A DNA stretch of 64,000 nt. It comes from an uncultured Chloroflexia bacterium. GTDB lineage: Bacteria > Chloroflexota > Dehalococcoidia > SM23-28-2 > RBG-16-64-32. Position 1 is the first letter of the stretch. Every line of letters begins with the position of its first letter. A program made the position numbers and the translations under genes. Below are positions 13,001 through 44,859 of the stretch, piece after piece. The stretch spans positions 727,905-791,904 of the forward strand of contig CAVTYE010000002.1 of NCBI GenBank assembly GCA_963738925.1, given 5' to 3'. Below the pieces are notes generated by a model. It worked only from the letters and a program-made list of their open reading frames with translations, searched no databases and was not told where the DNA came from.

Positions 13001-13779
13001 ACCCGACGAACTGGATGGACCCGTCGGGTCACAGCGCGATGACGCAGTGGCAGGCTGACACAGCGCAGGTGCTAGCCAATCCGCTATCCATTATTCTCAG
13101 CAAGCTGTCTGACAGCACCCTAGTCGGCCTTCCTTTGACGATCATGTCAATCGCCTTTCCCGTGTTGATTTGCGCGTTCACACCGACATGCATAGACGGA
13201 GCGATCGGATTCGCAAACATCATCGAGAAGTTCGGCGCAGATGCAACCAATTCGATTGGGAACTGGAGTTGGGAAGACTTAGCGCACGCAGTCGGTGACT
13301 TTCCGTACGTCCCTGGGCTCCGTGATTCACTCGAAGATGCATGGGCAACGGCCGGCCCGTATATTGTGCAGTGTGCACTCTGGGGTTTGGCTGGCGCGGC
13401 AGGGTACGGAAACGCACTTATCGGCGGCATCGCAGGATGTATAGCCGGCGTCGCCTCACGTATTTTACAGGAAGAATGGCCGAACAGCCCGCTAGTCGAA
13501 TGCATGGTGTGGGGGCTAGCCGCCGGAATCGGAGGGGTGGGCTTGTCGAACCTATCAAAGGGCACTCTGGCCGGATCTGGCTGTCTCGCCGGTATATTCG
13601 GTCGAGGACTTGACGATGTGGGGATCCACTCACCTGGAGCACAGTGTGGCGCATGGGCCCTCTTCGTAACCGTTGGGCAACTAATCGTTCAGTATCTTGA
13701 ACGAAATCCGAATGGTTTGCCTGCGTACGAAGCTGGCGGCTTGTCTTGCTTAGCGTCTGGCTTTCCGCGGCTGTTCTAA
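7012..13779 (+). CDS. Giant RHS/YD-repeat polymorphic toxin (2,255 aa)
   Basis: Signal-like N-terminus MLSTTVRAIGALLLVALFFAWSSAHV. Four ~130-aa jelly-roll-like modules follow, three ending in (V/L)D(D/N)(V/I)S-type strands (AVDDVNQAIMLPGYDL, GVDNISLWNEVPGWS, LLDDVSIEDTVPGWTV). Shell entry motif VDTSTGNFGYQELDLKTNGRVPLVLERYYNGHS. Dozens of YD repeats (YxYDxxGxL). RHS core end ...LRARYLNPAVGRFISADTVQPNAPGTQGYNLYAYVANNPTNWMDPSGH (DPSGH at 13018-13032). A 248-aa variable C-terminal domain follows. Confidence 0.95.
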   Translation: MLSTTVRAIGALLLVALFFAWSSAHVPVTLADPSASGADAPYPLNHTFDGDSHTVDVGLTNGDFAADSEPAAAPDNNDFNDATSWAGSPPSNSDFSTGDFTGWSRVNNTSIQYNSGQGYYGQMGGYSELITAPFDVDDDAQVFTFTAGFFGPYTTNWLDVSVLSGSGYSTQTYLTSYSCWFCNGVWWGWLTANAEAFRGQSIELIFNSSTPGTTAVDDVNQAIMLPGYDLSGNVRRYGDGYGNDFAHLDGGAAVTSSAVTVPDDADFLRLDVNGYNNAGLSKVSVAILSGTDFGTTDWVINQQYMPYGWSTRWISLEGYKGQTVKIVVGENQDGIGVDNISLWNEVPGWSTAGSVSHVRDGTDDYVINRGWLITPPIDLTDETQQVSFRWKTEGAAVDEYYIDVLSGTDFGTETHMVYKDGYNTGWQWMTVGLSQFAGQTVKIRFHQWYGVSLLDDVSIEDTVPGWTVNSYSGVGGVVTGEDGNGTFVTPSENGDPMDLYSSHISVNLLDRSGVTDLAYFDIKYTLGYVSSSLLQVYWHGDDDSTTQIFQDGASSPSTRTGFIWLPDYYGNGRFEIYGYGVRVYSLGDNVATEQLQEPFSQKVGQQVDTSTGNFGYQELDLKTNGRVPLVLERYYNGHSDQFGELGYRWSNSFDTHLVLEGGTEHVSVAFGSGTEEFFITNYIGGYYPADRRITDSLTHNGDGTYTLKTKNGTNYDFDSYGKLNSITDLKGNVVSLTYSSDRLSEVEDPDGRTLNFDYDANGHLETVSGPDEAVVSYSYDSNGDLTSVSDPEDGVRTYSYDKHRLIEADDQNDNPIFTNTFDSVNRVTEQTDAQDNTIHISYDDPDKGVTTVTDPNGNSALFYHDQYDRTTDKVDALGNTVSYVYDDNGSLQSIVDPHFNEWAFEFDSSGDLTHTEDPLGNPVSITYGANHLPTTVTDGRGFTTYITYDTHGNVTSVTDPTRVTIGTSEASVDGCGTGGTGDGIDDDSDGRIDDGCPSTINTYATGGKLTSTIDALGRTESYGYDSAGNRTSKVDGNGKTWAWTYDDSGRVTSETNPLDQTTSYEYDLFGRPILEENALGQQTTYLYDLAGHLLMVEDPLGHDTFWDYDDRGLVDEKIDADGNSTLYTYDANRNMTSVTDPTRLAHGDAETGDDCGDSHTGDGVDDDSDGYVDDGCPSTYYTYDQNNKLASVTDADGGSTNYTYDEAGQLLSEEDPIGRTTSYEYDDAGHVLQKTLPNDGVWAYDYDENGNLISQTDPLDHTTTYTYDPLNRRITTTDPLLNETDYTYDPVGQLISTLDAELNTTNYSYDNDGHLASITDPMEHMQTFGYDDAGQKTSVTDALGRVTSYDYDAAGRLASLTDPARQPDTTPESGGDCGTTGTGDGLDDDTDTHADDGCPSTIYSYDDAGRMTAVTKADGGITTYAYDPMGHLLSLTDPLRQPQSTPESGGDCGTAGTGDGLDDDSDTYVDDGCPSTIYSYDTAGRRTSMTDALGHTTDYGFDPAGQMTSMTDALTHSVLFGFDLAGQQTSVTNADGYTTAYTYDDLGNVATKTDPLDRTQQWEYDPAGNLLDTIDARDVEVDYDYYDNNQLQDVTFDGGNVSYTYDDIGRREHMYDSTGTTTWNYDAASNVTSINSPNGTVAYTYDDANDRQTMTLPSDRTFTYGYDATSGMLSSITDWQDREIDFTYDADGNRTGITRPNGLDSTYTYDLADRLTAIDHANSGGTIQSFDYTLDAIGNRTAVTSNAGTETYTLDDLNRVSSVDYPTGDDVSYTYDDNGNIHTMTVGATTTTYSYDDGGQLTSDGTNTFTYDENGNMTGDGGDSYTFDYANQLTSATVDSTTTEFAYDGDGTRSSKTTGDDTTNYLYDAQSGLPQVVDDGTNSYLQQGGAQAQIDDGSDDPSYFVDDALGSVRVVTNDSGDPTGSTDYNAFGSERTTSGDTSALGFTGQQSDPETGLTYLRARYLNPAVGRFISADTVQPNAPGTQGYNLYAYVANNPTNWMDPSGHSAMTQWQADTAQVLANPLSIILSKLSDSTLVGLPLTIMSIAFPVLICAFTPTCIDGAIGFANIIEKFGADATNSIGNWSWEDLAHAVGDFPYVPGLRDSLEDAWATAGPYIVQCALWGLAGAAGYGNALIGGIAGCIAGVASRILQEEWPNSPLVECMVWGLAAGIGGVGLSNLSKGTLAGSGCLAGIFGRGLDDVGIHSPGAQCGAWALFVTVGQLIVQYLERNPNGLPAYEAGGLSCLASGFPRLF
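9934..11433 (+). repeat. Four Cys-bracketed acidic 23-aa modules inserted between YD repeats
   Basis: Modules at 9934-10002, 10474-10542, 11140-11208 and 11365-11433. Each reads C-G-x4-(T/S)-G-D-G-x-D-D-D-(S/T)-D-x3-D-D-G-C-P, for example CGTGGTGDGIDDDSDGRIDDGCP and CGDSHTGDGVDDDSDGYVDDGCP. The first Cys codon to second Cys codon distance is exactly 63 nt in all four. Confidence 0.85.
13033..13779 (+). other. RHS C-terminal variable (toxin) domain, Gly/Ala/Cys-rich and hydrophobic
   Basis: 248 aa after DPSGH. It contains GxxxG/glycine-zipper-like stretches (WGLAGAAGYGNALIGGIAGCIAGVAS, WGLAAGIGGVGLS, AGSGCLAGIFGRG). No nuclease, deaminase or ADP-ribosyltransferase motif was recognised. Confidence 0.6.
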
Positions 13780-13791
13780 AGTTTAGAGCCT

Positions 13792-14046
13792 ATGGATTAC
13801 TTTACTCTCGTCGCAGGAATCGGACTGTTAATCCTGAGCATTTATTCGTTCCGAAGAAGGAGAAAAAATGCTGAGTTCATATTTCGATATTATGACGAAA
13901 GGTTCCAAAGGGTTACCTCCAAGTGGTTGCGCGCCTGGCAACTTCACCCTTCACGATCTGCTGCCCTCTTTCTCAGCACGCTTCTGACCTTTGCCTTTGC
14001 GGGGTGCGGCGCAGCCTTCGTCGCTTACGCGTTGGTAACTGGATAG
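13792..14046 (+). CDS. Small 2-TM protein, candidate RHS immunity protein
   Basis: 84 aa, starting 12 nt after the RHS stop. Two hydrophobic helices (FTLVAGIGLLILSIYSF and AALFLSTLLTFAFAGCGAAFVAYALV). Its position matches the usual toxin-immunity order. Confidence 0.5.
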   Translation: MDYFTLVAGIGLLILSIYSFRRRRKNAEFIFRYYDERFQRVTSKWLRAWQLHPSRSAALFLSTLLTFAFAGCGAAFVAYALVTG

Positions 14047-14291
14047 GCTCTTGGAATAGATATTCCCAAGAAGGGCCGGAGGAAAGCGGCTTCGAATAGT
14101 TGCCGTCGTCCGCTGTTTGCGCTCGGTGACCTGCCACATCCGGAGACACACCCACTCACGGATTCACAGGCGAGCAATCAGGACTGGCGTACCTGCGAGG
14201 GGACCATCTGAACCCCCCGCTACAGCAGTCATCTGCTTAGACCCTGTGACTTGAGAAACACCGCCACCTCGAGGCATCTACAACGAAGCGA

Positions 14292-16130
14292 ATGAGACGA
14301 TTTGATCTAAAAGAATTCGTGGACTACTTCCACGAGTCGGCACTCGAGTCGCCTTGGATCCTCTGGGTAGGTTCTGCAATCTCGCGTCCCGCCCCTTCGC
14401 TCCTGCCCATGGCTGAGCCAATCATCCGCGCCCTCTGTGCGCACCTGGCTGATACTCCGGAGACGAATCGGCTACTGGACACGGTAATGAGCGATTTTGC
14501 GCGGTGCGGGTCCCTGGACCTCGTCGCCCCATGGAAAAACGTCGCAATGACCACCGGCTGGCGAATGCCCTTCGAGGCCATCATGGGCGAGATTACCAGT
14601 CAAACCGGCAACCTGGTTCAGTCATTTCTCGATGCCCAGTTTCCGAGAAGCGCCGACTCCGAGCCGAATCTCAACCATGCAGCGATCGCGGCGATCGCCG
14701 AGTCTGGACTCGCCGATATCGTTGTGACAACTAACTTCGACGAGTGCCTGGACAAGATCTGGAGAGGAACAATCGTCGTTCCGACCGATGCCTTTGCTCC
14801 ACCGAACGCGACTCCCGCCCTCGTCAAAGTGCATGGTACGATCAGCGACTTCTCGACGGTCGCCGTCAATCCTGACGCCCTTGCAAAACGTTCGCGCGTG
14901 TCTTGGCAAGCGTCACTCGCGTCCCTCCTCAGGGGCCGCCGCGTTTTGTTCGTTGGTTACGGATTCCAGGACCGCTTTGACCTGACGCCGGCGTTGATAC
15001 AAGCAGAGCGAGACGGCGCCGAATTCTTCTGGGCGAACCAAAGCTTCCCCCCAACTCTCCCTCTCGCGACGATGTCCACAATCGACCACGACTTGAGTGA
15101 TCCAAATAGAAATCTGCTGCTCGCTCTCTGCCCAAATGCCCCCTCCAAAACCTCACCGGCCCGCTGGCCTTCAAACGAAGAGCAGGAGGCTTCTGTGACG
15201 TCGACTCTTCGAGGCCTGGCAGATCAGCCTTCTCTCGCCGAGCGCCTGAAGGCTTTCGCGTCCCTGTACTACTGGTTAGAAGACGGAAAGAGGTCTCTTC
15301 GCTTGTTCCGCGCCGCTCGCTCCGCTGACGCGACCAGCGTCGACACTCACGCACTCGCCCGCGCTTTCCTCCGGGCCAGGCGATATCGTCGGGCTGTCTT
15401 TCTATTTGATCGGATGCTGAACACGGAACTCCCAACAGACCCGGACGAGCGTTTGGACAAGACGATCGATTGGCACTGTGGGGCCGCCCATTGTGCCGCA
15501 GCCGGGGGGCGCGTACTAACAGCGCAGAAGCACTACGAACTGGCGAATGAGTCTCTTCGCTCCAGCGGCAAAGCCGCCGCGGAACTCGATCCCTATTTGA
15601 TGGATCAACTGCTGCGGGGAAGAGCTGGAAACTTGATCCGCCTCGCCGCTCGTTCATGGAGCTTTAGGGAGCGCGACGAATTGCTCTCGGCTGCTGAGGT
15701 GGATCTTGTGCTGCTGGCGTCACAGATCGATCGTCTTGAGTTGCGGGTACAGTACTTGATGAAGAGAGACCTTGCACGAATACAACTCATCCGCGGAAAC
15801 TCCTCGGACGCCGTGCGAGGCTTCGGTGAGGTTAAGGAATTCTTCGAATACTGGGGCGATCCCGATGGCTTGACAGTTGCCATGAGAGACCTGGCAGCCG
15901 CTGGCAAAGTGGGGGGATTCCGCTCGCTCGCACCAGCTGCGGCGGAGGCACGGAAGCGCGGTAGGTGGCTGGAGTGGATTAAGATTGAAGCCACACGCGT
16001 TGGCCTAACTGGCTATGGCCCTCTGGCTCCAGCGCAAGCGCGAATACGCAACGCGGCAATCGCCATCTGGGACGCGATCAAGGAGATGTTGCTAAGCACT
16101 TGGGAGTTTGCACTGGGCCGGAGGCCATAA
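14292..16130 (+). CDS. SIR2-like (SIR2_2 type) domain protein with C-terminal TPR-like helical repeats
   Basis: 612 aa. SIR2_2 motifs: ILWVGSAISRPA, VVTTNFDECL, LVKVHGTISD, VLFVGYGFQDRFD. The C-terminal ~300 aa is Leu/Ala/Arg-rich helical repeat (YYWLEDGKRSLRLFRAARS..., ARAFLRARRYRRAVFLFDRML...). Confidence 0.8.
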   Translation: MRRFDLKEFVDYFHESALESPWILWVGSAISRPAPSLLPMAEPIIRALCAHLADTPETNRLLDTVMSDFARCGSLDLVAPWKNVAMTTGWRMPFEAIMGEITSQTGNLVQSFLDAQFPRSADSEPNLNHAAIAAIAESGLADIVVTTNFDECLDKIWRGTIVVPTDAFAPPNATPALVKVHGTISDFSTVAVNPDALAKRSRVSWQASLASLLRGRRVLFVGYGFQDRFDLTPALIQAERDGAEFFWANQSFPPTLPLATMSTIDHDLSDPNRNLLLALCPNAPSKTSPARWPSNEEQEASVTSTLRGLADQPSLAERLKAFASLYYWLEDGKRSLRLFRAARSADATSVDTHALARAFLRARRYRRAVFLFDRMLNTELPTDPDERLDKTIDWHCGAAHCAAAGGRVLTAQKHYELANESLRSSGKAAAELDPYLMDQLLRGRAGNLIRLAARSWSFRERDELLSAAEVDLVLLASQIDRLELRVQYLMKRDLARIQLIRGNSSDAVRGFGEVKEFFEYWGDPDGLTVAMRDLAAAGKVGGFRSLAPAAAEARKRGRWLEWIKIEATRVGLTGYGPLAPAQARIRNAAIAIWDAIKEMLLSTWEFALGRRP

Positions 16131-21031: not shown

Positions 21032-22498
21032 TTACATGTAATAACGGTATGACAATTCAGGGTCTACGTCTTCGGGAACCTCCGCCATGATCGGTCCTAC
21101 TACGCCAGCCATTTGCATCGTTATCGGGAATTTGCCTCCAACAGACGCGGCATTCCAATTCATTTTGGTCAACGCCAACGTCTCTTCGCAAACTCTTCGT
21201 ATATCCGCACCCCCGCCCTGTATTTCAATCGGTTGTGGGATATGTGGCCCTGGGTAAGTGCCCCAATCGGGATAAAAGCCCGTCGTGTACAGACAGATCT
21301 TCTCTTCCCCCACAATAAGTGCCGTACCTCGGGGCGGAGGATATTTTGTCTCAGGCATCAAGCGAAGGTCCGATCCCCGAACAGAGAGAAGTTCCAGGGT
21401 TCCAATATCCGCGAAGCCCCGGTGGAAGCCAGCGACTTCGGCATCGGAATAGACGCTTGTCTTGTGGATGGTTACGCGCGTCGGCGTACGACCTGCCCGC
21501 TCGCGATACTCCGACACAACGGCACGGGCTAGATGAGCTGCTTGATCTTCGGAGAGGTGAACCTCCGTTCCATCGGTCCATGGGATACGATCTCCTCGAA
21601 GAACGAATCCATCGATCTCAGAAGAGAATGCCTGGGCAATACTGCTGTACATGAGTGTTCTAGTGGTGGTCACGAGACGATGGAAACTGATGCCGACGTA
21701 GCAAACGTGAGGTGAGTCATACGCTAGTCGCCAGGGTATACCTCCAGCCTTATAAAATAGGCCAACGCCGACGCTCCATGCCCGAGTGGCGGGATCGTCC
21801 TTCTCCGGGCCATCGAGAAACAAATGATCCGTCGCCAGTTGTACTGGCACTCGATCGCGAAGTAGCATCACCTTTCCCTTAATCGCCCGACGCAACGTTC
21901 TGAATGCCAAATGCTCCGCATCTCCAGACTCACCAAAGTCGAATGGCAACGGTAGTTGCTCCCGGCGCCCGCGCGGCGTCAAAGAGAGGCGTTGGGGGCC
22001 CGCCTGCTGAAGTGTAGCGGTAGTCCGCAAGACCTCTTCAGGTATGCCGCAGATGACTAGAGCTGGACCCATTTCCCGCGTTGTGAGAGCGCGAATGCCT
22101 TCTAAATAGAGGTCAACAATCGAGTCGAAGCGAGCATTCTTTGTAAGACCGAGCGCTCGAGCCAGCCGCAAGTCCGAAATCTCGTATTTCCACCGATCAG
22201 CTAATTCAAGAGACGAGTGAAAGACGCTGGCGAACCCGGGAAAGTCCGGGAATCGTCGCCTATTTGTTCCTCCTGATAGCACCGTTCCTCGGCATCTCTC
22301 GAACCAAGAGGTCGCCTTCGCAATCATCGAAGGGGGGCCGACTATACCGATTCTTGTTTGGCTTGGGTGGCCGCCACCATACTGAAGGCTAAATGGGCCA
22401 CTTCTGGTCAGCCCACTCTTTGGGTCAGCGTCTACGTCGCGACCGCCGAACTCTAGTTCAGGTTCAGGCAATTTACTTAGAAGGATTGGGATGGTCAT
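21032..22498 (-). CDS. Short prokaryotic Argonaute (MID-PIWI only)
   Basis: 488 aa, too short to carry N/PAZ domains. The N-terminal PELEFGGRDVDADPKSGLTRSGPF matches the short-pAgo L.F...D...GL..GP pattern. PIWI-like core: HVCYVGISFHRL, RVTIHKTS, KFPITMQMAGVVG. C-terminal ...LSYRYYM. No acidic residue at the GISF position, so an inactive PIWI is likely. The ATG overlaps the upstream stop (ATGA at 22495-22498). Confidence 0.85.
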   Translation of the reverse strand: MTIPILLSKLPEPELEFGGRDVDADPKSGLTRSGPFSLQYGGGHPSQTRIGIVGPPSMIAKATSWFERCRGTVLSGGTNRRRFPDFPGFASVFHSSLELADRWKYEISDLRLARALGLTKNARFDSIVDLYLEGIRALTTREMGPALVICGIPEEVLRTTATLQQAGPQRLSLTPRGRREQLPLPFDFGESGDAEHLAFRTLRRAIKGKVMLLRDRVPVQLATDHLFLDGPEKDDPATRAWSVGVGLFYKAGGIPWRLAYDSPHVCYVGISFHRLVTTTRTLMYSSIAQAFSSEIDGFVLRGDRIPWTDGTEVHLSEDQAAHLARAVVSEYRERAGRTPTRVTIHKTSVYSDAEVAGFHRGFADIGTLELLSVRGSDLRLMPETKYPPPRGTALIVGEEKICLYTTGFYPDWGTYPGPHIPQPIEIQGGGADIRRVCEETLALTKMNWNAASVGGKFPITMQMAGVVGPIMAEVPEDVDPELSYRYYM

Positions 22499-25065
22499 GT
22501 CTTGATTCTGGGCTCGTCCACGTTTATTCCGTCCTGCGGCATGTCGGCGGCCAATGGACGCGCACGAATGACGATGGGGTTGTCGCCTGTCAGCGTAAGA
22601 CGAATCTCATTCTCCTCAGGCTCCAATATCGATCGCCAGAAAAAGACATCTGCAAGTGCCTTCTGGTTGTAGTCCTCGGTGCTGTTTGACGTTGCGAGGG
22701 AGGTAGCTTCTCGCCCTCGAATGCGATCACGATCACCGTCGAGCGTAAAGACGTATGTGGGTGCAATTCTGAGGCACCAATAGCCAGAGATGTGCTCGAA
22801 ATGAAACTCAGCCGCCTTGTGAATGCAATAAGTTCGCGTTGCACCAGGCCACCACGCGACGCGACGACTAGGTTGATGAACGCGCGCCTGGTACTTAATC
22901 CTTCGTACGGGGCCCTTTGTGCATGGAAAATACGCTCGGCGGCGCTTCCAATCAACGCGTAATCCTTGTCGGCGTAGGACAGTAAGTAGTGTCTCGTTTA
23001 GAAGCTCAGTAATAATGTTCTTGCCGTCCGTTCGATCTTGGAAGTCACGCATGTCGAGCAGCGTGACGTTCGGGCCATCGAGCGGACCCACATAGAGTGC
23101 GGGAAACAGAGCGGGATTTACCAAGGCAAACAGTTGACCTTCGTGCGGAACGAACGGAGGACACGCCGCACGTTCACGAGTTGGCAAATCACGTCGGTCT
23201 CTCAACGTGGTTGGCATCGCGAAGAGGGTTCGCGGAAGCTCGATGACTTCAAATAGGTTAGTGTGTGCTCGAACCTGTAAATCGGATGGACGAGCCGTCG
23301 ACGTGCGAGAATCAACCGCAGCTTGGCGAGGTATCAGGCGTGCCGTGAAAGCGGTATTCTGAACTGAAACCTCGACTAGTAATTGTCCGTCAATTGCTTC
23401 CATGGATGCCAATGCATCTGACAGTCCAGATCCCGCCTTGTCTATAAGACCATTGCCGAACCAAAGGTCGGCTATCACAGGATTGCGGTATCCAGTGATC
23501 CCTGGCCCCCTCTCTCCACGAGCAATTCGTCGTTGCAGAAGATCAGGTGGTATGCGCGACTCGGACTCGTCATAGTCTTCGCCCAGGAGCCGACGCAGCA
23601 ATGAGGGTTCGATTCCTCCGGGACTCTCGATGGATATCTGATTCGTTTCGACGCGAATTACGATCGGGTCTGGCGATTCATAGCTCCGGTGAACTAAAGC
23701 GTTTGCGAGTACTTCTTTGATTGCATCTCGGGAATAGCGTCTGACCGTTTTAGAGCGTTGCCCCTTCATCCGGACGGGTGGATTCACATCTGATATGACG
23801 CTCATGGCGGATTCGAACTGTGTCCAGAGCGTGCCATCGAGGGCCGTGGGGGGTTTTCCTGGAAGTCGAATCTCTACCCAGGCGCCTCGTGCCACAACGC
23901 GAGGATCTTTCTCGAGCAAGAGGACACCTGCGTTTGTAAGGTTGGTTGCATCGCCGTCGCGAACCGCAAGTCCCGCCGTGGCCAAAAGATTGAAGGCAGC
24001 ATCTCTTTCTGTGGAGTCCGAGGAAAATCGCTCCGCATAGTCCGTCATTTCGATTGGCAGCGTGTCAGGAGCGCGCACTGGCGAGGTCGGCAATCTTAAG
24101 TCAAATGTCAGCGGCGCGCCGGTGGGATATGTATAGCCCTGAGCGCCCTCTGTCCCCGAGGACCGCCAGCACTCACGAAGCTCCGTCAGCAGCGCGTCAA
24201 AGTCGGTAATCGCGACCGAATTGAAGTTGCGTCCTAAAGCATCTGCCAAGTCAGATACCATGGGTGCCAATCCGGAGCTTGGCCTTCGTGAGCACCAGTA
24301 GACCCCATGTTTGAAACGATCGACAGACTGCACGTTCTGAAACAAAAGGTCATGCATTACAGACCTCTCAGAACCACGGTATCCAACAACGACCAATGGG
24401 TGGTCGCGCAGCATGGGAAGTAGACGAGCAACTAGAAGCTCATCCAACGATTCTGTCTCACCCGGGAGGTTGCGATCTTTGTAGTATTCGGCTTGGCCGT
24501 GAAGATAAATGACCTGGGGATATGCGGGCGCCGTTGTGATCGCAACATACTCTTCTTGTTTACCGATCGTGATAAGCGACCCGGGGCCATAAGCGGTGCG
24601 AATCAAATCGTCAAAGTTAGTCGTCAATACGGAATGAATGATTCGTCGCCGCAGTAGCGAAGCGAGACACTGGTATCCGACGTTGGGAGGAGCGGTCTGC
24701 TTTAGTAGGCTTAGAAGAAATCGTCGGCGAAATTCTCTCGGACTGTCTAGCAACCGAATGAGATCGGGGAACATGTCTGCCCAATCTCTGTCCGCACGGT
24801 ACCAGTGTTCCGATTCGAGCACCGTGGATATGTCGCCGGGGCGAATGCGCGGATCGTCAGGTAGCCATCCTTGTCGTTTGGCGTAAAGCCAACGAGCACC
24901 AAGTCGAACCAGATCGCCGCTCGCTGGAATTCCGGAGCTAACGGACGCACCCGCCCCCAGCAGAAAGATGGGGTCCGGGCCATCGATAAGGCGTGAGAAG
25001 AGGCTCCTGACGTCCAGCGGTTTAGTTGCAGCGATTGTGTCAGACATGGAGTGTGTCGCTGCCAT
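22495..25065 (-). CDS. SIR2 / HATPase_c_4-like / putative APAZ protein (pAgo partner), 856 aa
   Basis: N-terminal SIR2_2 motifs: IFLLGAGASVSSGIP, VLTTNFDDLI, VIYLHGQAEY, LVVVGYRGSERS. Central segment: AIKEVLANALVHRSYESPDPIVIRVETNQISIESPGG ... YRNPVIADLWFGNGLIDKAGSGLSDAL. This is the HATPase_c_4 signature seen in Schlafen/AlbA_2-type proteins. The C-terminal ~250 aa (RAYFPCTKGPVRRIKYQ...WCLRIAPTYVFTLDGD...) lies where APAZ is expected in pAgo partners. The APAZ assignment rests on position only. Confidence 0.8.
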   Translation of the reverse strand: MAATHSMSDTIAATKPLDVRSLFSRLIDGPDPIFLLGAGASVSSGIPASGDLVRLGARWLYAKRQGWLPDDPRIRPGDISTVLESEHWYRADRDWADMFPDLIRLLDSPREFRRRFLLSLLKQTAPPNVGYQCLASLLRRRIIHSVLTTNFDDLIRTAYGPGSLITIGKQEEYVAITTAPAYPQVIYLHGQAEYYKDRNLPGETESLDELLVARLLPMLRDHPLVVVGYRGSERSVMHDLLFQNVQSVDRFKHGVYWCSRRPSSGLAPMVSDLADALGRNFNSVAITDFDALLTELRECWRSSGTEGAQGYTYPTGAPLTFDLRLPTSPVRAPDTLPIEMTDYAERFSSDSTERDAAFNLLATAGLAVRDGDATNLTNAGVLLLEKDPRVVARGAWVEIRLPGKPPTALDGTLWTQFESAMSVISDVNPPVRMKGQRSKTVRRYSRDAIKEVLANALVHRSYESPDPIVIRVETNQISIESPGGIEPSLLRRLLGEDYDESESRIPPDLLQRRIARGERGPGITGYRNPVIADLWFGNGLIDKAGSGLSDALASMEAIDGQLLVEVSVQNTAFTARLIPRQAAVDSRTSTARPSDLQVRAHTNLFEVIELPRTLFAMPTTLRDRRDLPTRERAACPPFVPHEGQLFALVNPALFPALYVGPLDGPNVTLLDMRDFQDRTDGKNIITELLNETLLTVLRRQGLRVDWKRRRAYFPCTKGPVRRIKYQARVHQPSRRVAWWPGATRTYCIHKAAEFHFEHISGYWCLRIAPTYVFTLDGDRDRIRGREATSLATSNSTEDYNQKALADVFFWRSILEPEENEIRLTLTGDNPIVIRARPLAADMPQDGINVDEPRIKT

Positions 25066-25175
25066 CGTATCTCTCTGCTAGTGGAATCCCTGACCCAAAG
25101 TGGCACTAGTTTGTGGATACGGATTAACCCCCGAAGCCGGCCACGCTGCTAGGAGGAGTAATCGGGACCAATGAG

Positions 25176-25181
25176 TATAAT
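25176..25181 (+). promoter_or_regulatory. Candidate -10 box TATAAT for the DUF4263 gene
   Basis: A perfect TATAAT lies 63 nt upstream of the ATG at 25244, in the 178-bp divergent spacer shared with the pAgo operon. No convincing -35 was seen. Confidence 0.3.
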
Positions 25182-25243
25182 CCCTGCTACCAACACACCT
25201 TGCGTGATGTCAGGTATTTGAGAGGAGTTCAGATCAAGAGACC

Positions 25244-26656
25244 ATGGAAAGTGACCTCGACCTAAAGAGGGCTCGCGCGTCGCTAGATGAGTTTGCGGCA
25301 CTCCTCGCGGCCAAACCAAAGGAATCCGAGTGGCAGCGTCTCTTCTCATCAAATCCACACATCCTCTCGCAAGCGCTACCCTTGCGCCTGGAACCAGGCG
25401 ACATCAGACCGGGTGGTAGACCGGGTCAGAGCGAGGCAGACTTCATAATCCACCCTCGGGCCGTTGGTCCGATCCCGTTTTACGGCGTAATTGAACTGAA
25501 GCGCAACGATGCTTCGGTCGTGCGAGTCAAGCGAGCCGACCTCTTGGAGTTGACCAGTGACGCACAGACAGCAGTTAGGCAGGCCCAAAATTACGCGCGA
25601 AAACTGCGCAAGGCACTTCTTGTGGGAGGTGAGCGTTCACTGATCCTCGGAAACCCAGCCTACAACTTCATCATCATGGGTATGTCCGATGAGATCGCAA
25701 GAAAGGTAGCGGAAGAAGTCTTGGCCAAACAAATGGCGGGACTTCTCCCTGGTGGATGTCACCTGGTCAACTACGACCAACTATTCGAGCAATTCAAGGC
25801 AAGCATCCCTCCGACCTTCCTCCAACTCGTTCCTGCTTTGCCATCGTTTCCTAGGCCACGTTGGGATTTGAACCAAACATCGCGCCTCCTGGATCGCCTG
25901 GTCCAATCGAAACCCACCAGACCCGCGGAGCCTTGGGCGGCGGCAAGATCCCCGAGCGGTAGCGGACGGTTCTGTGTAGTCGCGGATGGATTGGCAAGCT
26001 CATCCGCGTCAAGCGAGGAACTGATGCGGGACATTTCGTCCAAATCATCAAATGACATTCAGTTCCGCGCCGTCAGCTACAGCGGAGTAGGCCGGAGCTA
26101 TGGCCGATATGACACGCATAGGTCTCTGAGTTCGCTGGCAAGATCTCTACGAGAATATCTGCCTCAAAGGCCGTTCGACTCGACAATCTCCTATGTCGGC
26201 ATTGGCATCGGCTCTAATGTAATTGTTGGAGGCCTTGCGAGGGCGATGTCGGAACTCCCAACGTCCGAGTCCTCCCGATGGGCTTCGTCAATTCGCAGGC
26301 TCGTGCTCGTCGGACCTATGTTCAGAGCTCCTACGTGGATGCAGGATTGGCTCCGGGACGGCGCTCGAGTAATTCCGGCGCCAATGGCTGAGTTGATGGC
26401 GGGTGGTGACGGGCCATACACCGTTGAAGGTCTACGAATAATACGGCAATTGGGAATACCCGTGACAGTAATCCTTAGCGTTGCCGATGGATTGGCAGAG
26501 TACGATGAGGGCCTTATTGGCAGCCTCACTCAAATGGGCGCCGAGGTGATTAGGGTGACAGCGGAATCGACAGGCCGTGAGCCATTCGCGGCTCACTTCT
26601 CGACCTATCGGTCACCTTCGGTGATGCGGATCGTTGCTTCCCTGGTTAACAGTTAG
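25244..26656 (+). CDS. DUF4263 (Shedu-type PD-(D/E)xK nuclease)-like N-terminal domain fused to an unknown ~240-aa C-terminal domain
   Basis: 470 aa. The N-terminal half has ESEWQRLFSSNPHILSQAL...SEADFIIH...FYGVIELKRNDASVV...AVRQAQNYARKL...YNFIIMG. This matches the DUF4263 pattern (E..W..f...nP.il ... D ... vEiK ... Q ... iiG). The C-terminal half (ISYVGIGIGSNVIVGGLARAM, RRLVLVGPMFRAPTW) looks alpha/beta, but no clean GxSxG nucleophile elbow was seen. Confidence 0.65.
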   Translation: MESDLDLKRARASLDEFAALLAAKPKESEWQRLFSSNPHILSQALPLRLEPGDIRPGGRPGQSEADFIIHPRAVGPIPFYGVIELKRNDASVVRVKRADLLELTSDAQTAVRQAQNYARKLRKALLVGGERSLILGNPAYNFIIMGMSDEIARKVAEEVLAKQMAGLLPGGCHLVNYDQLFEQFKASIPPTFLQLVPALPSFPRPRWDLNQTSRLLDRLVQSKPTRPAEPWAAARSPSGSGRFCVVADGLASSSASSEELMRDISSKSSNDIQFRAVSYSGVGRSYGRYDTHRSLSSLARSLREYLPQRPFDSTISYVGIGIGSNVIVGGLARAMSELPTSESSRWASSIRRLVLVGPMFRAPTWMQDWLRDGARVIPAPMAELMAGGDGPYTVEGLRIIRQLGIPVTVILSVADGLAEYDEGLIGSLTQMGAEVIRVTAESTGREPFAAHFSTYRSPSVMRIVASLVNS

Positions 26657-26769
26657 CGCCATCCCGCATCAAACTTCGGAGGACAAACAGACGTAAGGCT
26701 TCCTCGAGCCTGGGCATGGGTGCACAGGAAAGTCGAGTCAGCCGATAGTCTTAGCTCCGGGCTTGCCGC

Positions 26770-27284
26770 CTAGACTGCGCCTTTGCGTCGGTTGTCCTCC
26801 AGGCACAGCATCTGGCAGTTGGCTCCGTTTGTCTTCCCGCGCTTCGACCACGGGGTGATGTGGTCCGCTTCCATCTCGCCGATCTCGAAATGCTTGCCGC
26901 ACTTGGGACAGGTTGTAGAGGGTGCCCCAGTCGATGGTCTTCATCTCCTTGCGATACGTGGTGAACGTCAACTCCACCCACGAGATGACGGCTTGGAAGT
27001 ATGACCACAGCTCGTTGGCGTTCGGATCATGCTGGTGGTCCGACATGTACTGCTCGATCTTGTCGCCGAACAGCCACGATATGGCCGTTTCCAGAAAATC
27101 CTGGCGGATCGGTGTGCCAGTCACGTACTTGCTGCCTATGGCTCTGTCCGATGAGGTCTTCACCCTCTGCCGTCAAGGGGCGGCGCCAACGGTGAGCATA
27201 AACGACCTCCGTCCCGTAGGGCCCCTTCCATTCATCCCTCCCCGATCGCGCCTCTTTGCCCTTGACGCCATTCACCTCGCTCAC
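26770..27284 (-). pseudogene. Decayed DUF262-associated HNH endonuclease gene (frameshifts and internal deletion)
   Basis: One frame gives ...FLETAISWLFGDKIEQYMSDHQHDPNANELWSYFQAVISWVELTFTTYRKEMKTIDWGTLYNL. A shifted frame continues CPKCGKHFEIGEMEADHITPWSKRGKTNGANCQMLCLEDNRRKGAV, an HNH motif with its stop at 26772-26770. A further shift occurs near 27150. No DGQQR-type DUF262 N-terminal domain is present. Confidence 0.6.
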
Positions 27285-27453
27285 TGTCCTTCATGGCTTG
27301 TTTCAAGCTGAGCCCACTTCAAGTCTACGAACGCAAGATCGGGCGATGTCAAAGCGTCAATTCATACGCAGTCCACTGGCGGCAGTGTTTGATGGGCGTC
27401 TATAGTCATGGACAAACGTCCTGGAACGTGCCAGGCAGCCGTGAGGATTCCAA

Positions 27454-30400
27454 ATGCCTTTGCAGACTCTGGATCCAGATCTCGATCTTCTTCGGGAGGA
27501 GTACGTTCTCGTCCAAGCATGGAAGAAGACATCAAACTACATTCGCCAGCACAACTGGTATGCAGATACTGTTGAGCTCGATCTGGCGAGCTCTGATCTC
27601 CAAGGGTTTCTTCAACAGCTCAAACAACGTCTGACCGAACCGAGTCAATGGAGATCGGGACTATTGCGACTTGTTCCCGCACCAAAGAATCAGAAGTGGG
27701 TCATTGCGAATGGCGCCTGGACTCCCGCGGAGTCCGTAGAACCAATCGATAGGCTCCGTCCGCTTGCCAATGTCAGACTCATCGATCAAGTTATCGCCAC
27801 CGCCATTGCCTTGTGTATTGCGGACCGAGTCGAGACTATACAAGGAGTTCCACGAGTCTCAATAACTGACAACCTGGCGAGAAGGCGAGTCATATCCTAT
27901 GGCAATCGGCTCTTCTGTCAGGAGGTAGAAGGCGAACTTTTGCATCGCTGGGGGTCGTCGACCTTGTATCGCCGCTTCTTTGAAGACTACCGCAACTTTC
28001 TGAAGCGGCCACAGGCCGTCGCGGAGTCTCTTAGAACGCAGCCAAACTCCGATGTGGTCATAGTTAAGTCAGACCTCAGAAATTTTTACGATCGCGTTTC
28101 GCCGGCGCTATTGCAGGCCAAACTTGCGGCTCTTATGCGTCCCTATGACGATGCGGGGTTCCTTGATCTCGCCAGTCGGGTCCTAAACTGGCACTGGGAT
28201 GCCCAGGACCTACCGCAAGTCCAGGATTACGCGCGCCGAGCCGGTATCCAAGACTTCAACGTTGTCGCATTGCCGCAAGGCCTAGCAACAGCAGGGTTCT
28301 TCGCGAACGTGGCGCTCCTTGACTTCGATGATGCTCTACGAAACTCACTCGGCGAAGAAATCGAGCCCGGAGTAAAGCTCGAGGACGCCTGCCGATATGT
28401 GGACGACCTCCGCCTAGTCTTGATGGTCGAGGGCTCGCGGCAACTCAGTGAAATTAAGACAATCGTTTATCGTTGGGTTCAGAACTTGCTGGACCTGAAT
28501 GCTGAAGACTTGCTCGCATCCGAGGAAAAGACAGTACCAGCGCCATTTGGCGCGGCGGAACGGCCATTGGTGCCGCAAAGCTGGAAGATGAACCGCATCC
28601 AGCATGCAATATCAGGGGGATTCGATCCCACTCAAGCGGAGGAGATTCTTGCGTCTGTACAGGCTCTAGTGCAATCTCAGCAGAGGCTCGCCGAACGGCT
28701 TGAAGTGGCAGATAGCCAAGATGAGCCGTGGCGAATGTCGCCAGCCCCAGATGTGGAAGACGACACGGTGTCAAGATTCGCTGCTCATCGCTTCAGGACC
28801 ACTTATCGGTCGCTACGTCCGCTCCTCGAAGATACTGCTCCGCAAGATGAGGCCCCTCATCGCTCAGGTTTAGAGCCGCTACGCACGAAAGCAGAACTTG
28901 ACGCGGAAGCCCAAGCATTCGCCTTCGACCTTGTAGAAAAATGGGTGCGCGATCCTTCACATGTCCGACTTCTTCGAATTGGATTGGACATCTGGCCGGA
29001 TTCACAGCTCCTCGACAGCGTTTTGGAGCTCCTGCGGCCCTACACGACGGCTAGACGAGCGACTTCAGCCGACTTCGTCGCTTGGTACGCCCTGGCGGAA
29101 GTCTTCCGCGCTGGCGCTACCGAAACCGGCTTGGTTACTGACGAGGAGATGTTGCCAGATGCCGTCGACTTCGCGGGTTTCAAGGCCACCCTTGCTAACG
29201 AGGCTCGCCGACTTCTGTCCCTGCCGGTATCCAGCGTGCCATGGTACGTGCGACAGCAAGCCTTGCTATATTTGGCCGCCTTCGACCCGAACGACGTCGA
29301 CCTTGGGCGCGACCGAACCGAGGAAACACGAAGGTACCGAGACTTAATTCGGTTCCTGAATCGCGGAGGGAAAGGATGGAGCGAGCGGAAGTTTGCCACG
29401 TACTCAGTCTTGGCGAGAAAGAGCTTCCTTTCAGCCGGCGATGCAATCAAGCTTGTTCGCGGCCGACTGAATCGAGGAATTCTGAACATGATCGGAGCGA
29501 TGGATCCATCATTCGCAGCTGAGATTGTCGCCACCGGACCATCCACCGGTATTTCGCGTCGACTATCCCGCGACCTAGGAGTGGAGCCGAAGCCTGGGAC
29601 TCTCCGGTCGCTTGTCTTGGGTGAGTCAAAGGGCAAAGTTCGGAATGAACGGACGATCCTGCGATTCGCGGAGCAGTTCTTATCGCAGGCACCCGGACTC
29701 ACGGACGAGGTAATAACACCCTCTGATGCATTTCTGGAGCTGTCCGATAGCAGGACGCGAGATGAGACAGACGTATTGCTTACTCGCTTGAAACTCAAGC
29801 CACTTAGAGTTCAGCGTGAACAGTCGATGTATCGTCCGCCGGACTGGTGCGATCCAACTGAACGATGGCGGTTTCAATTGGGCTATCTCATACGGTTTAT
29901 TCTCGCTGGCCAACCTGATTTCACAAGAATTGTCAGACGTTCTAGGCGTATCCAGGCCGAGGGTGGCCGCTATCGCCGACCAGAGAGCAATTGGTACCAG
30001 CGCCTGTACGGCATGTTCACGGCGCACGCAGCATTTGGTGACGACTGGTTAGCCGTGTCCGACTGGCTGGAACTCTTTCTCTTTGAGTTGCTCCTTTGGC
30101 CCGGATGTGAGCCATCCGATCTAGATTTCGTTCGCCGAGGACGTTTAGCAACGTTACGTGCCGTGCGAAAGAGGCTAAGCGACTTGGAAGAGCTTCAGGG
30201 ACCGGCTCGCAGCGTCTTCATTCTTCCCCTGAATGTACGTCGACCGGACAGCACGGCGGAAGACAGGAAGCTGAGGGGTTGCGTCGTCCAGACCGTTTTA
30301 CCCCGGATGAAAGATCTTCTGAAAGACGCTACGGTCTCTGACCCAGCTGCAAGACGCGTACAACGCCGTCATCTCTCCACGATTCTAGAGTCCGTTAAAA

Positions 30401-31152
30401 GAATGCTGGCGGTCAGAGGTACGCACGAACCCGACGGATCGAGGCTGGATTGGTTGATTCTTCCGGAGCTTTCTGTTCACCCGGACGACGTCGGAACCCA
30501 TTTGAGGCGCTTTGCGCTTCAGCACAAGACAATAATTCTCGCCGGGCTCACTTACCAGAGTCAGGGCCCAGGCGGGCCACTCGTCAACATGGGAGTATGG
30601 ATCGTCCCCGAATTGTCGGCGAGCCGCGGTTTGCAGATTAGGCAGCGCTACCAAGGCAAGCAGTATCTAGCACAGGATGAGAAGGGCCTGGGCATTCAGG
30701 GTTATCGACCATGTCAGTGGATCATCCAGTATCCGTGGGCGAATGATAAACCGCCCCTTCGCCTCACAGCCTCAATCTGTTACGACGCAACCGACGTTGA
30801 TCTTGCATCGGATCTTCGTGAAAACTCCGACGTGTACGCGATCCCCGCATTAAATAAGGACGTCAACACGTTTGACCAGATGGCGCTCTCTCTTCAGTAC
30901 CACATGTTCCAGATGGTCATTGTCGCAAATAATGGGGAATTTGGCGGGAGCAATGCCTATGTGCCCTATCGGGAGCAATACGATCGCCAAGTCTTCCATC
31001 TTCACGGGCAACCGCAGGCGTCGATAGGATTCATCGAAATCGATCCGATCGAAGACTTCCTCTCCCGAAAGAAGATCGGGAGCAAGAAGTCCGCCGCGCC
31101 GTCTCGCCCTGTCGGTCGGGCGTTTAAGTATCCCCCTGCAGGACTGACCTAG
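27454..31152 (+). CDS. Reverse transcriptase fused to a C-terminal nitrilase (C-N hydrolase) domain; DRT type 1 / UG1-like
   Basis: 1,232 aa. RT motifs: RPLANVRLIDQVIATAIALCIADRVE (motifs 1-2), VVIVKSDLRNFYDRVS (A), LPQGLATAGFFANVAL (B), CRYVDDLRLV (C; YVDD codons at 28396-28407). A long helical middle region follows. The C-terminal nitrilase-like triad context is WLILPELSVH (Glu codon 30466-30468), RYQGKQYLAQDE (Lys) and LTASICYDATD (Cys codon 30778-30780). Confidence 0.85.
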   Translation: MPLQTLDPDLDLLREEYVLVQAWKKTSNYIRQHNWYADTVELDLASSDLQGFLQQLKQRLTEPSQWRSGLLRLVPAPKNQKWVIANGAWTPAESVEPIDRLRPLANVRLIDQVIATAIALCIADRVETIQGVPRVSITDNLARRRVISYGNRLFCQEVEGELLHRWGSSTLYRRFFEDYRNFLKRPQAVAESLRTQPNSDVVIVKSDLRNFYDRVSPALLQAKLAALMRPYDDAGFLDLASRVLNWHWDAQDLPQVQDYARRAGIQDFNVVALPQGLATAGFFANVALLDFDDALRNSLGEEIEPGVKLEDACRYVDDLRLVLMVEGSRQLSEIKTIVYRWVQNLLDLNAEDLLASEEKTVPAPFGAAERPLVPQSWKMNRIQHAISGGFDPTQAEEILASVQALVQSQQRLAERLEVADSQDEPWRMSPAPDVEDDTVSRFAAHRFRTTYRSLRPLLEDTAPQDEAPHRSGLEPLRTKAELDAEAQAFAFDLVEKWVRDPSHVRLLRIGLDIWPDSQLLDSVLELLRPYTTARRATSADFVAWYALAEVFRAGATETGLVTDEEMLPDAVDFAGFKATLANEARRLLSLPVSSVPWYVRQQALLYLAAFDPNDVDLGRDRTEETRRYRDLIRFLNRGGKGWSERKFATYSVLARKSFLSAGDAIKLVRGRLNRGILNMIGAMDPSFAAEIVATGPSTGISRRLSRDLGVEPKPGTLRSLVLGESKGKVRNERTILRFAEQFLSQAPGLTDEVITPSDAFLELSDSRTRDETDVLLTRLKLKPLRVQREQSMYRPPDWCDPTERWRFQLGYLIRFILAGQPDFTRIVRRSRRIQAEGGRYRRPESNWYQRLYGMFTAHAAFGDDWLAVSDWLELFLFELLLWPGCEPSDLDFVRRGRLATLRAVRKRLSDLEELQGPARSVFILPLNVRRPDSTAEDRKLRGCVVQTVLPRMKDLLKDATVSDPAARRVQRRHLSTILESVKRMLAVRGTHEPDGSRLDWLILPELSVHPDDVGTHLRRFALQHKTIILAGLTYQSQGPGGPLVNMGVWIVPELSASRGLQIRQRYQGKQYLAQDEKGLGIQGYRPCQWIIQYPWANDKPPLRLTASICYDATDVDLASDLRENSDVYAIPALNKDVNTFDQMALSLQYHMFQMVIVANNGEFGGSNAYVPYREQYDRQVFHLHGQPQASIGFIEIDPIEDFLSRKKIGSKKSAAPSRPVGRAFKYPPAGLT

Positions 31153-31157
31153 TAGAA

Positions 31158-31979
31158 CTAAGCAGATTCGCCGGTTTGCGACTCGCCAATCACGGCCTTC
31201 ACGTCATCTGGGAAGTCTCCCTTCAGGATCCAGGTCAAATAATCGGGGGCTTCTGACTTCACCTGTGTTAGTGGTACTCCCCTGTATTTTCCAAAGTTCA
31301 AACAGATTTCATCGTTTGCTCTGATTAGCAGGCCGTGCTCGTCTATCCAATTCTCGTCGACCCTTCTCGGCGCAGAAATCTGATCAAGCTCCCGCAGTTC
31401 GCGCGTGAGATCGGGATACCGCTCCAGTTGTCCGAGTAGCACGTCCATGGAAGCCAGCGTGTCGGCCTCTGATGAGTGGGCGCCGTTGTGCTCTCGCCCT
31501 CGATAGAACTGGAGCGCTGCTGTCAGATCTCGAGGCTCGCGCTCGAAATAGATCGCGAGCGCATCGACGATGGCGCGATCGTCAATAGAAAACCAGTGCC
31601 CAGCTCGGCGGAACTCAGCGCTGAGTACTTTCAAATCGAATCGTGCTATTCCGAACCCAGCCAAATCGCATCCATCAAGATGCCTAGCCAATGAACGCGC
31701 TATTCTCCGAAATGTTGGCTCGTGTTCGACGTCGGCAGTAGTTATGCCGTGAACGGCGGTAGCTTCCTCCGGCACTGGCATTTCCGGATTCACCCTGCGC
31801 GTAACGACATTCAAGGCACCAGATGGAGACACCTTCGCAACTGAGACCTCCACTACGCGCGCGGTCATTGGGTTAGTACCCGTGGTTTCGAGATCGATAA
31901 AAGCCAATGGGCGGTCTAATTTCAAACTCCGAGCAAGTTTCGCCGCCACCTCGATATATGGGGAATTTGCTTCTGCCAT
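31158..31979 (-). CDS. DEDDh 3'-5' exonuclease (DnaQ/epsilon-like) with ExoX-like C-terminal motif
   Basis: 273 aa. Exo I AFIDLETTG, Exo II LAGFGIARFDLKVL, Exo III HSSEADTLAS. C-terminal FGKYRGVPLTQV...PDYLTWIL. Its stop lies 5 nt from the RT-nitrilase stop (convergent). Confidence 0.85.
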   Translation of the reverse strand: MAEANSPYIEVAAKLARSLKLDRPLAFIDLETTGTNPMTARVVEVSVAKVSPSGALNVVTRRVNPEMPVPEEATAVHGITTADVEHEPTFRRIARSLARHLDGCDLAGFGIARFDLKVLSAEFRRAGHWFSIDDRAIVDALAIYFEREPRDLTAALQFYRGREHNGAHSSEADTLASMDVLLGQLERYPDLTRELRELDQISAPRRVDENWIDEHGLLIRANDEICLNFGKYRGVPLTQVKSEAPDYLTWILKGDFPDDVKAVIGESQTGESA

Positions 31980-44784: not shown

Positions 44785-44859
44785 TGGCGCCCCCGACAGG
44801 ACTCGAACCTGTGCCCCCGGCTTCGGAGGCCGGTGCTCTATCCACTGAGCTACGGGGGC
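44785..44859 (-). tRNA. tRNA-Arg (anticodon CCG), CCA encoded
   Basis: The reverse strand folds as GCCCCCG-TA-GCTC-AGTGGATA-GAGC-A-CCGGC-CTCCGAA-GCCGG-GGGC-ACAGG-TTCGAGT-CCTGT-CGGGGGC-G-CCA. It is 75 nt and all stems are complementary. Confidence 0.9.

Follow-up and report, generated by a model that had tools for sequence, protein, structure and literature searches.

A nuclease-first Shedu-like protein with a C-terminal, probably non-catalytic alpha/beta-hydrolase-fold domain from a Chloroflexota defence island

A stretch of 64,000 nucleotides from an uncultured Chloroflexia bacterium (assembly GCA_963738925.1, contig CAVTYE010000002.1; the whole stretch is called the window here) contains, at 25244-26656, an intact frame of 470 codons whose product begins with a DUF4263 nuclease domain of the Shedu (SduA) type and ends with an alpha/beta-hydrolase-fold domain in which the catalytic serine is replaced by glycine. 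Identification of both domains can be given with great confidence. That the protein as a whole is a stand-alone Shedu-family defence nuclease carrying a C-terminal pseudo-enzyme module is the favoured functional interpretation, and is considered fairly probable with appreciable room for doubt. The features of the gene on which the argument draws are as follows.

25244-26656, forward strand: whole open reading frame (ORF), nuclease-first Shedu-like protein of 470 residues; the start codon matches the starts of homologues
25244-25843, forward strand: DUF4263/Shedu-type PD-(D/E)xK nuclease domain, residues 1-200, ending at a conserved LVPALP junction (Pfam, PADLOC, profile against PDB, AlphaFold2 (AF2) with Foldseek)
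25322-25324, forward strand: motif I, Glu27 (E204 of B. cereus SduA)
25439-25441, forward strand: motif II, Asp66 (D249)
25493-25501, forward strand: motif III, Glu84-Leu85-Lys86 (E264/K266)
25580-25582, forward strand: motif IV, Gln113 (Q295); all four motifs from the hidden Markov model (HMM) alignment, alignment A5 and the motifs listed by Gu et al.
25844-25963, forward strand: linker, residues 201-240, matching the N-terminal ~35 residues of stand-alone hydrolase relatives (alignment A2)
25964-26653, forward strand: alpha/beta-hydrolase-fold domain, residues 241-470, probably non-catalytic (AF2, Foldseek)
26204-26206, forward strand: Gly321 (GGC) of the nucleophile elbow G-I-G-I-G; serine in 14/14 relatives (G-F-S-L-G)
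26486-26488, forward strand: Asp415, aligned with the conserved W-P-x-D acid of the family (alignment A2)
26594-26596, forward strand: His451, aligned with the nearly invariant histidine of the family (alignment A2)

The nuclease domain

A DUF4263 domain at the N-terminus had been proposed from the sequence in an earlier reading of this DNA (the original prediction), and Pfam, PADLOC, a profile search of the PDB and structure modelling followed by Foldseek all agree with that proposal. The single sequence matched the Pfam SduA_C model with 27.0 bits over residues 26-123, the gathering cut-off being 27, and the PADLOC SduA model with an E of 2.3e-6; taken alone, these matches are marginal. Since the Pfam score sits at the cut-off, routine annotation would often miss this ORF. 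Relatives of the domain reach 47.8 Pfam bits over the full model, and a 20-sequence profile of residues 1-220 (alignment A5, with relatives drawn from the protein database and from contigs of a one-genome-per-species collection) matched SduA alone in the PDB (8ti8, E 6.8e-6, across the entire nuclease domain), the next match having an E of 1.4. An AF2 model built on A5 (pLDDT 87, pTM 0.80) gave nine Foldseek matches at E<=1e-3, all of them to SduA of B. cereus or E. coli (8ti9, 8ps4 and 8ti8), with TM values of about 0.5-0.6 and a next match at E 0.4. Identity to the solved SduA proteins is 16-18%. By tblastn against plasmids a single match was obtained, to an Agrobacterium gene annotated "Shedu immune nuclease family protein", in which the matching part (residues ~276-457 of 485) occupies the canonical C-terminal position; a search of a phage collection returned no match. 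The A5 profile, the Foldseek result and the annotated plasmid match together confirm that the resemblance to Shedu is well beyond chance.

The residues expected for catalysis are also in place. E27, D66, E84/K86 and Q113 are invariant in A5 and correspond to the catalytic motif list of B. cereus SduA, that is, E204, D249, E264/K266 and Q295 (Gu et al., bioRxiv 10.1101/2023.08.10.552793). The motifs quoted in the original prediction were all located, EADFIIH at residues 64-70, GVIELKRND at 81-89, RQAQNY at 112-117 and FIIMG at 142-146. In fold and motifs the domain resembles Shedu specifically and differs from a generic PD-(D/E)xK nuclease. Compared with type 1/type I SduA (B. cereus B4264, 8TI8/8TI9; E. 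coli, 8PS4/8PS5), the protein has the same DUF4263 fold with motifs E, D, ExK and Q, and is alike in being a single-gene unit, in lying in a defence island and in joining a variable domain to a constant nuclease; the order is inverted, however, and neither an N-terminal sensor nor a helical linker precedes the nuclease.

The hydrolase-fold domain

The ~240 C-terminal residues had been described beforehand as alpha/beta in character without a clean catalytic motif, with a fold comparison suggested as the check, and both the AF2 model and the alignment bear this description out. The two domains were modelled separately; a joint MAFFT alignment put the hydrolase relatives onto the nuclease. The model of the C-terminal domain is confident (pLDDT 88, pTM 0.89), and Foldseek returned 525 PDB matches at E<=1e-3, among which the 50 listed were without exception monoacylglycerol lipases, esterases and related alpha/beta hydrolases. 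The fold comparison thus gave an alpha/beta hydrolase; its nucleophilic serine is replaced by glycine. An identity as a STALD/SLOG domain (E 0.025-0.06) was rejected, since the confident model matches alpha/beta hydrolases throughout.

An exhaustive HMMER search with residues 221-470 against 1.84 billion representatives yielded 19 matches at E<=1e-3, three of which (P0009, P0012 and P0014) were dropped as repeat-rich, low-complexity artefacts. The true relatives are proteins of ~265-320 residues, one protein of 179 residues and the C-terminus of one protein of 883 residues; a word-index search using A2 as the hydrolase profile found two proteins only. The family is very rare. Its members, as aligned in A2, share the elbow G-F-S-L-G, an acid in W-P-x-D and a histidine that is nearly invariant, making up a Ser-Asp-His triad. 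In the model of the present domain the elbow is a strand-turn-helix, with a strand at 93-100, residue 101 (Gly321) at the turn and a helix at 102-117, and the sequence there is G319-I-G321-I-G323, without the serine of G-x-S-x-G. Kept positions in A2 comprise Asp415, His451 and ten other invariant ones, and the retained family residues include D28, S34, S58, Y59, G63, Y66, T71 and Y85. By alignment, D415 and H451 would be the acid and histidine of the triad. The C-terminal domain has the hydrolase fold but cannot act as a classical serine hydrolase, and it is probably non-catalytic.

One might still suppose a dual effector, in which the hydrolase is active through Ser324 or through a water activated by Asp and His, so that the protein would act on a lipid or ester substrate in addition to DNA. 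Retention of Asp415 and His451, a serine three residues past the elbow (GIGIGS) and the full triad of the relatives would fit such an enzyme, but the elbow residue itself is glycine, residue 324 lies inside helix C, and the canonical serine is the one used by all 14 relatives, so that this possibility is regarded as very unlikely.

A clade of nuclease-first proteins

The nuclease half is part of a thinly populated clade that spans many phyla. In each of the some 38 full-length relatives examined the nuclease comes first: the 25 from the database, without exception, have an N-extension of <=21 residues and a C-extension of 51-329 residues, and the 13 full-length genomic relatives show the same order. 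The latter came from metagenome-assembled genomes of Acidobacteriota, Solirubrobacterales, Dormibacterota, Verrucomicrobiota, Armatimonadota, Eisenbacteria and Rhodospirillales. Identity within the clade is ~40-50% up to a common "IPPxxxxLVPA" junction and none is found beyond it, where at least 12 different C-terminal domains follow. Partners recognised include Sigma70_r4, HTH_26, FGE-sulfatase, NTP_transferase, TIR_2, Pro_isomerase (cyclophilin), Meth_synt_2, zf_Tbcl (treble-clef zinc fingers) and DUF1566, together with several unknown domains. This shuffling at the C-terminal end mirrors that at the N-terminal, sensor end of canonical Shedu proteins. Two members look broken: at L014:10001-10545 the match is split over two frames, and at L015:9279-9767 the first ~48 residues are missing and the frame ends early.

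How unusual this order is can be judged from published classifications. Loeff et al. distinguished type I, with DUF4263 at the C-terminus, from type II, with short flanks; Gu et al. (bioRxiv 10.1101/2023.08.10.552793) distinguished type 1, with N-terminal domains, from type 2, consisting of the nuclease only, and noted in one sentence that 163 of 1,355 "type 1X" proteins extend more than 100 residues past DUF4263 on its C-terminal side and that their regulation may differ. The inverted order has thus already been noticed in the literature, in passing and without characterisation. The original prediction was right that the nuclease lies at the N-terminus, the reverse of characterised SduA, but given these 163 homologues the arrangement is less unprecedented than was implied. 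These type 1X homologues resemble the present protein in having a large extension after the nuclease and in the different regulation suggested for them; in Gu et al. they are counted only, their domains and clade not being described and an alpha/beta-hydrolase partner not being mentioned. Nuclease-only type 2/type II proteins likewise start with the nuclease and have no N-terminal sensor, whereas here the short flanks described by Loeff et al. are replaced by 270 further residues that form a folded domain.

The clade bears on how Shedu nucleases are thought to be controlled. In current models the N-terminal domains and linker hold a tetramer of the C-terminal nuclease inactive; nuclease-first proteins cannot use that geometry, because their variable domains all sit on the opposite end of the nuclease, and they therefore offer a natural test of how general the model of autoinhibition and octamer activation is. 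The clade is probably under-counted in defence censuses, because the Pfam scores of its members lie at the cut-off or under it.

Relatives of the hydrolase and reality of the fusion

Stand-alone members of the hydrolase family were found in five cassettes (L018:675-2067, L019:3-1216, L020:2-1163, L022:7466-8846 and L023:7547-8822), and in 5/5 cases a small, fast-evolving gene of ~155-182 codons without any family match lies directly upstream, the spacing ranging from overlaps of 14 or 1 nt to gaps of 1 or 7 nt. The Ser-Asp-His triad is intact in these hydrolases. One cassette is located on an element of integrative or conjugative type that also carries a relaxase, a DUF87 ATPase and an integrase. 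The pair looks like a rare, undescribed two-gene cassette. The small partner was considered as a cryptic relative of the nuclease domain, and this was rejected (hhalign probability 0.9%).

A second fusion is provided by the metagenomic protein P0013 (883 residues, L017:8001-10652), which has an N-terminal nuclease of the Cap4/LmuA/Avs2 type (E 2e-18), a STAND-type ATPase in the middle and a hydrolase of the same rare family, with elbow GFSFG, at the C-terminal end. Its gene has been inserted on its own into a housekeeping region, with rpsU on one side and an ogt-like gene on the other. P0013 is an independent case of an N-terminal PD-(D/E)xK effector joined to a C-terminal hydrolase of this family, and by analogy the hydrolase would occupy the sensor position of Avs proteins. 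It differs from the present protein in the STAND NTPase and helical region between the two ends, in the nuclease family and in having kept the serine.

Within the protein considered here, the junction between the domains is free of in-frame stops and of homopolymers longer than 4 nt, and the GC content of third codon positions (GC3) is uniform across it, at 59% in the nuclease half and 58% in the hydrolase half. In all relatives of the nuclease, too, a C-terminal domain is attached from the LVPA junction onwards. The combination of nuclease and hydrolase was seen in this ORF only, in searches covering ~5.8 billion clustered proteins and, separately, 1.84 billion representatives. It is exceedingly improbable that a nuclease-only Shedu gene and a stand-alone hydrolase gene were joined by an artefact of assembly or by a frameshift: the invariably tight coupling of stand-alone hydrolases to an upstream gene, and the retention here of nearly the whole stand-alone protein with its N-terminal leader, are what such an artefact would produce, yet the sequence of the junction and the common fusion point of all nuclease relatives argue against it.

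Genomic context and the question of an Argonaute partner

The gene lies between two recognised defence systems, a short prokaryotic Argonaute (pAgo) with its SIR2-APAZ partner on one side and a DRT1 protein on the other. The neighbouring features are as follows.

21032-22498: short pAgo, overlapping the SIR2-APAZ gene (PADLOC pAgo_I, 421 bits)
22495-25065, reverse strand: SIR2-APAZ, upstream and divergent (PADLOC Aga_SIR2-PNTD1-PNTD2, 695 bits)
25066-25243: divergent spacer of 178 bp, from the SIR2-APAZ start to the start of the Shedu-like ORF (sequence read)
25176-25181, forward strand: TATAAT in the divergent spacer (sequence read)
25222-25227: GAGGAG in the divergent spacer
27454-31152, forward strand: DRT1 RT-nitrilase, downstream on the same strand (PADLOC Drt1a, 1224 bits)
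27454-31979, for the pair with DRT1: DEDDh/RNase_T exonuclease with an ExoX-like tail, converging on DRT1 (PADLOC PDC-S48, E 1.9e-27)

The 178-bp length of the spacer and its TATAAT at 25176, both pointed out previously, were verified by reading the sequence; position 25066, formerly given as the start, is the first base of the spacer and the ORF begins at 25244. A consensus scan of the spacer (25066-25243) found no full sigma-70 promoter with -35 and -10 elements.

Composition sets this region apart. GC content is 54-61% in the left half of the window and 63-69% to the right of ~32 kb, and GC3 is 54-59% in the neighbouring defence and island genes and 87-92% in two core genes; insertion sequence (IS) elements and gene stumps are present in the island. 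None of 40 genomes from the same genus, family and order carries the Shedu-like gene. From the composition and this absence, the gene is taken to be cargo of a horizontally acquired island. The break between 1-32000 and 32000-64000 is sharp, and ARAGORN found no intact tRNA near 32.4-32.7 kb, the sole tRNA being tRNA-Arg(CCG) at 44785-44859.

The original prediction left two alternatives, an independent Shedu variant or an accessory nuclease of the pAgo system, and the evidence favours the first. The second would have the nuclease serve the adjacent SIR2-APAZ/short-pAgo pair and be co-regulated with it from the 178-bp spacer, and it draws on the divergent arrangement and on a GC3 equal to that of the pAgo operon. 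However, tblastn with the pAgo, SIR2-APAZ, DRT1 and DEDDh proteins of the window as queries gave no match within +-10 kb at any of 16 loci with homologues, and three further metagenomic contexts also contained none of the four. Among 400 genomes of the phylum there was one other related SIR2-APAZ/pAgo operon, and no Shedu-like homologue occurred in the ~9 kb fetched on each side of it. The pAgo pair alone fits complete PADLOC class I models, and a functional link between DUF4263 and Argonaute was not found in the literature. The accessory role is accordingly highly improbable, and for annotation the Shedu-like gene is to be separated from the neighbouring pAgo system. An all-against-all BLAST of 132 ORFs likewise revealed no conserved neighbour across the 16 loci beyond four sporadic pairs; judged from gene content, the independent Shedu variant appears to be a single-gene system without an obligatory partner.

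The suggestion that homologues might co-occur with defence genes or with pAgo held in part: there was none with pAgo, and the clade shows some association with defence or mobile regions in a PADLOC tally made without a control set. Matches near homologues included MADS genes, AriA/GajA/PtuA-type ATPases, bSEFIR, SAVED-TIR and ThsB-like genes, restriction-modification methylases and an OLD-TOPRIM ATPase.

Proposed function and alternatives

By homology to SduA, the N-terminal domain would be a metal-dependent DNA endonuclease or nickase, probably working as an SduA-like oligomer. Removal of the non-nuclease domains from B. cereus SduA leaves a toxic, constitutively active protein (Gu et al., bioRxiv 10.1101/2023.08.10.552793), and this constitutive toxicity without accessory domains leads one to expect a brake or sensor in the attached domain. 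With the nucleophilic serine lost and the rest of the conserved pocket kept, the C-terminal pocket most likely binds something instead of hydrolysing it, and the domain would then have a regulatory or sensing role, holding the nuclease inactive as long as there is no infection. A ligand or protein related to infection would then bind the pseudo-hydrolase and release the restraint, and the activated nuclease would cut or nick invading DNA through E27/D66/E84/K86/Q113, as do the B. cereus and E. coli SduA proteins. On this basis we infer that the protein acts against phages, forms oligomers, is controlled by its C-terminal domain and binds a ligand.

Several observations weigh against this interpretation. 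Selection on the fusion cannot be demonstrated, because the nuclease-hydrolase combination is a singleton, and loss of the serine might just as well be a sign of decay. The clade occurs in varied genomic surroundings, some members lying beside OLD/ABC-type (OLD-TOPRIM) ATPases, restriction-modification methylases and IS elements, one in an IS-rich region, and others among housekeeping or ordinary genes. The main rival, held to be unlikely, is a decaying or non-functional chimera, produced by recombination in an island of fast turnover and with its hydrolase half inactivated by the change from serine to glycine. That the fusion occurs once, that possibly a single AGC-to-GGC change removed the nucleophile, that two clade members, L014 and L015, show obvious truncation or frameshifting, and that the island holds IS elements and gene stumps are all consistent with decay; the intact frame of 470 codons, the retention of all five nuclease motif residues and of ten further hydrolase-family positions, the confident AF2 models of both halves and the uniform GC3 across the junction are less easily reconciled with it. 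A non-immune nuclease, serving mobile-element maintenance or addiction, or DNA repair, and merely located in the island, is more doubtful still. The clade members among housekeeping genes or IS elements and the hydrolase found on an integrative or conjugative-type element would suit that role, but the fold and motifs are specifically Shedu-like, two recognised defence systems flank the gene, and the neighbours of relatives include the PADLOC-recognised defence genes listed above.

The defence interpretation can be extended to the wider family, tentatively and with a probability clearly below even. In this extended form the nuclease-first proteins would be a distinct, undescribed branch of Shedu with C-terminal sensing, the pseudo-hydrolase of the present protein would be a receptor for a small molecule or peptide that gates the nuclease in the manner of GID1/D14, and the hydrolase family would provide immunity with a reusable sensor module, the last point being drawn from its occurrence at the C-terminus of the Cap4-nuclease/STAND protein and in two-gene cassettes of mobile elements. 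Plant GID1 is a non-catalytic alpha/beta-hydrolase receptor whose pocket is kept, whose triad is incomplete and in which ligand binding switches the interaction with a partner. The likeness is one of working principle only, GID1 being eukaryotic, unrelated in sequence and without any link to a nuclease. With a hydrolase that lacks its serine joined to an immune nuclease, the known kinds of sensor in bacterial immunity would come to include a pseudo-enzyme receptor.

Other features of the island and of related loci

The stop codons of the DRT1 and DEDDh exonuclease genes are ~5 nt apart. In the gap of ~800 bp between the Shedu-like gene and DRT1 (26657-27453), a minus-strand ORF of 141 codons (26738-27163) has no Pfam match and is possibly a gene remnant. 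At locus L006 a clade member is adjoined by a gene (11490-14309, reverse strand) for a 940-residue protein that at its N-terminus resembles pAgo-associated REase-APAZ proteins over their REase domain (E 2e-24); a match to an APAZ part was not obtained, and no pAgo was found nearby. The SIR2-APAZ protein of the window (22495-25065, reverse strand) includes, between SIR2 and APAZ, a HATPase_c_4 stretch of the Schlafen/AlbA type at residues 518-569, and with this stretch it still fits the Aga_SIR2-PNTD1-PNTD2 model end to end.

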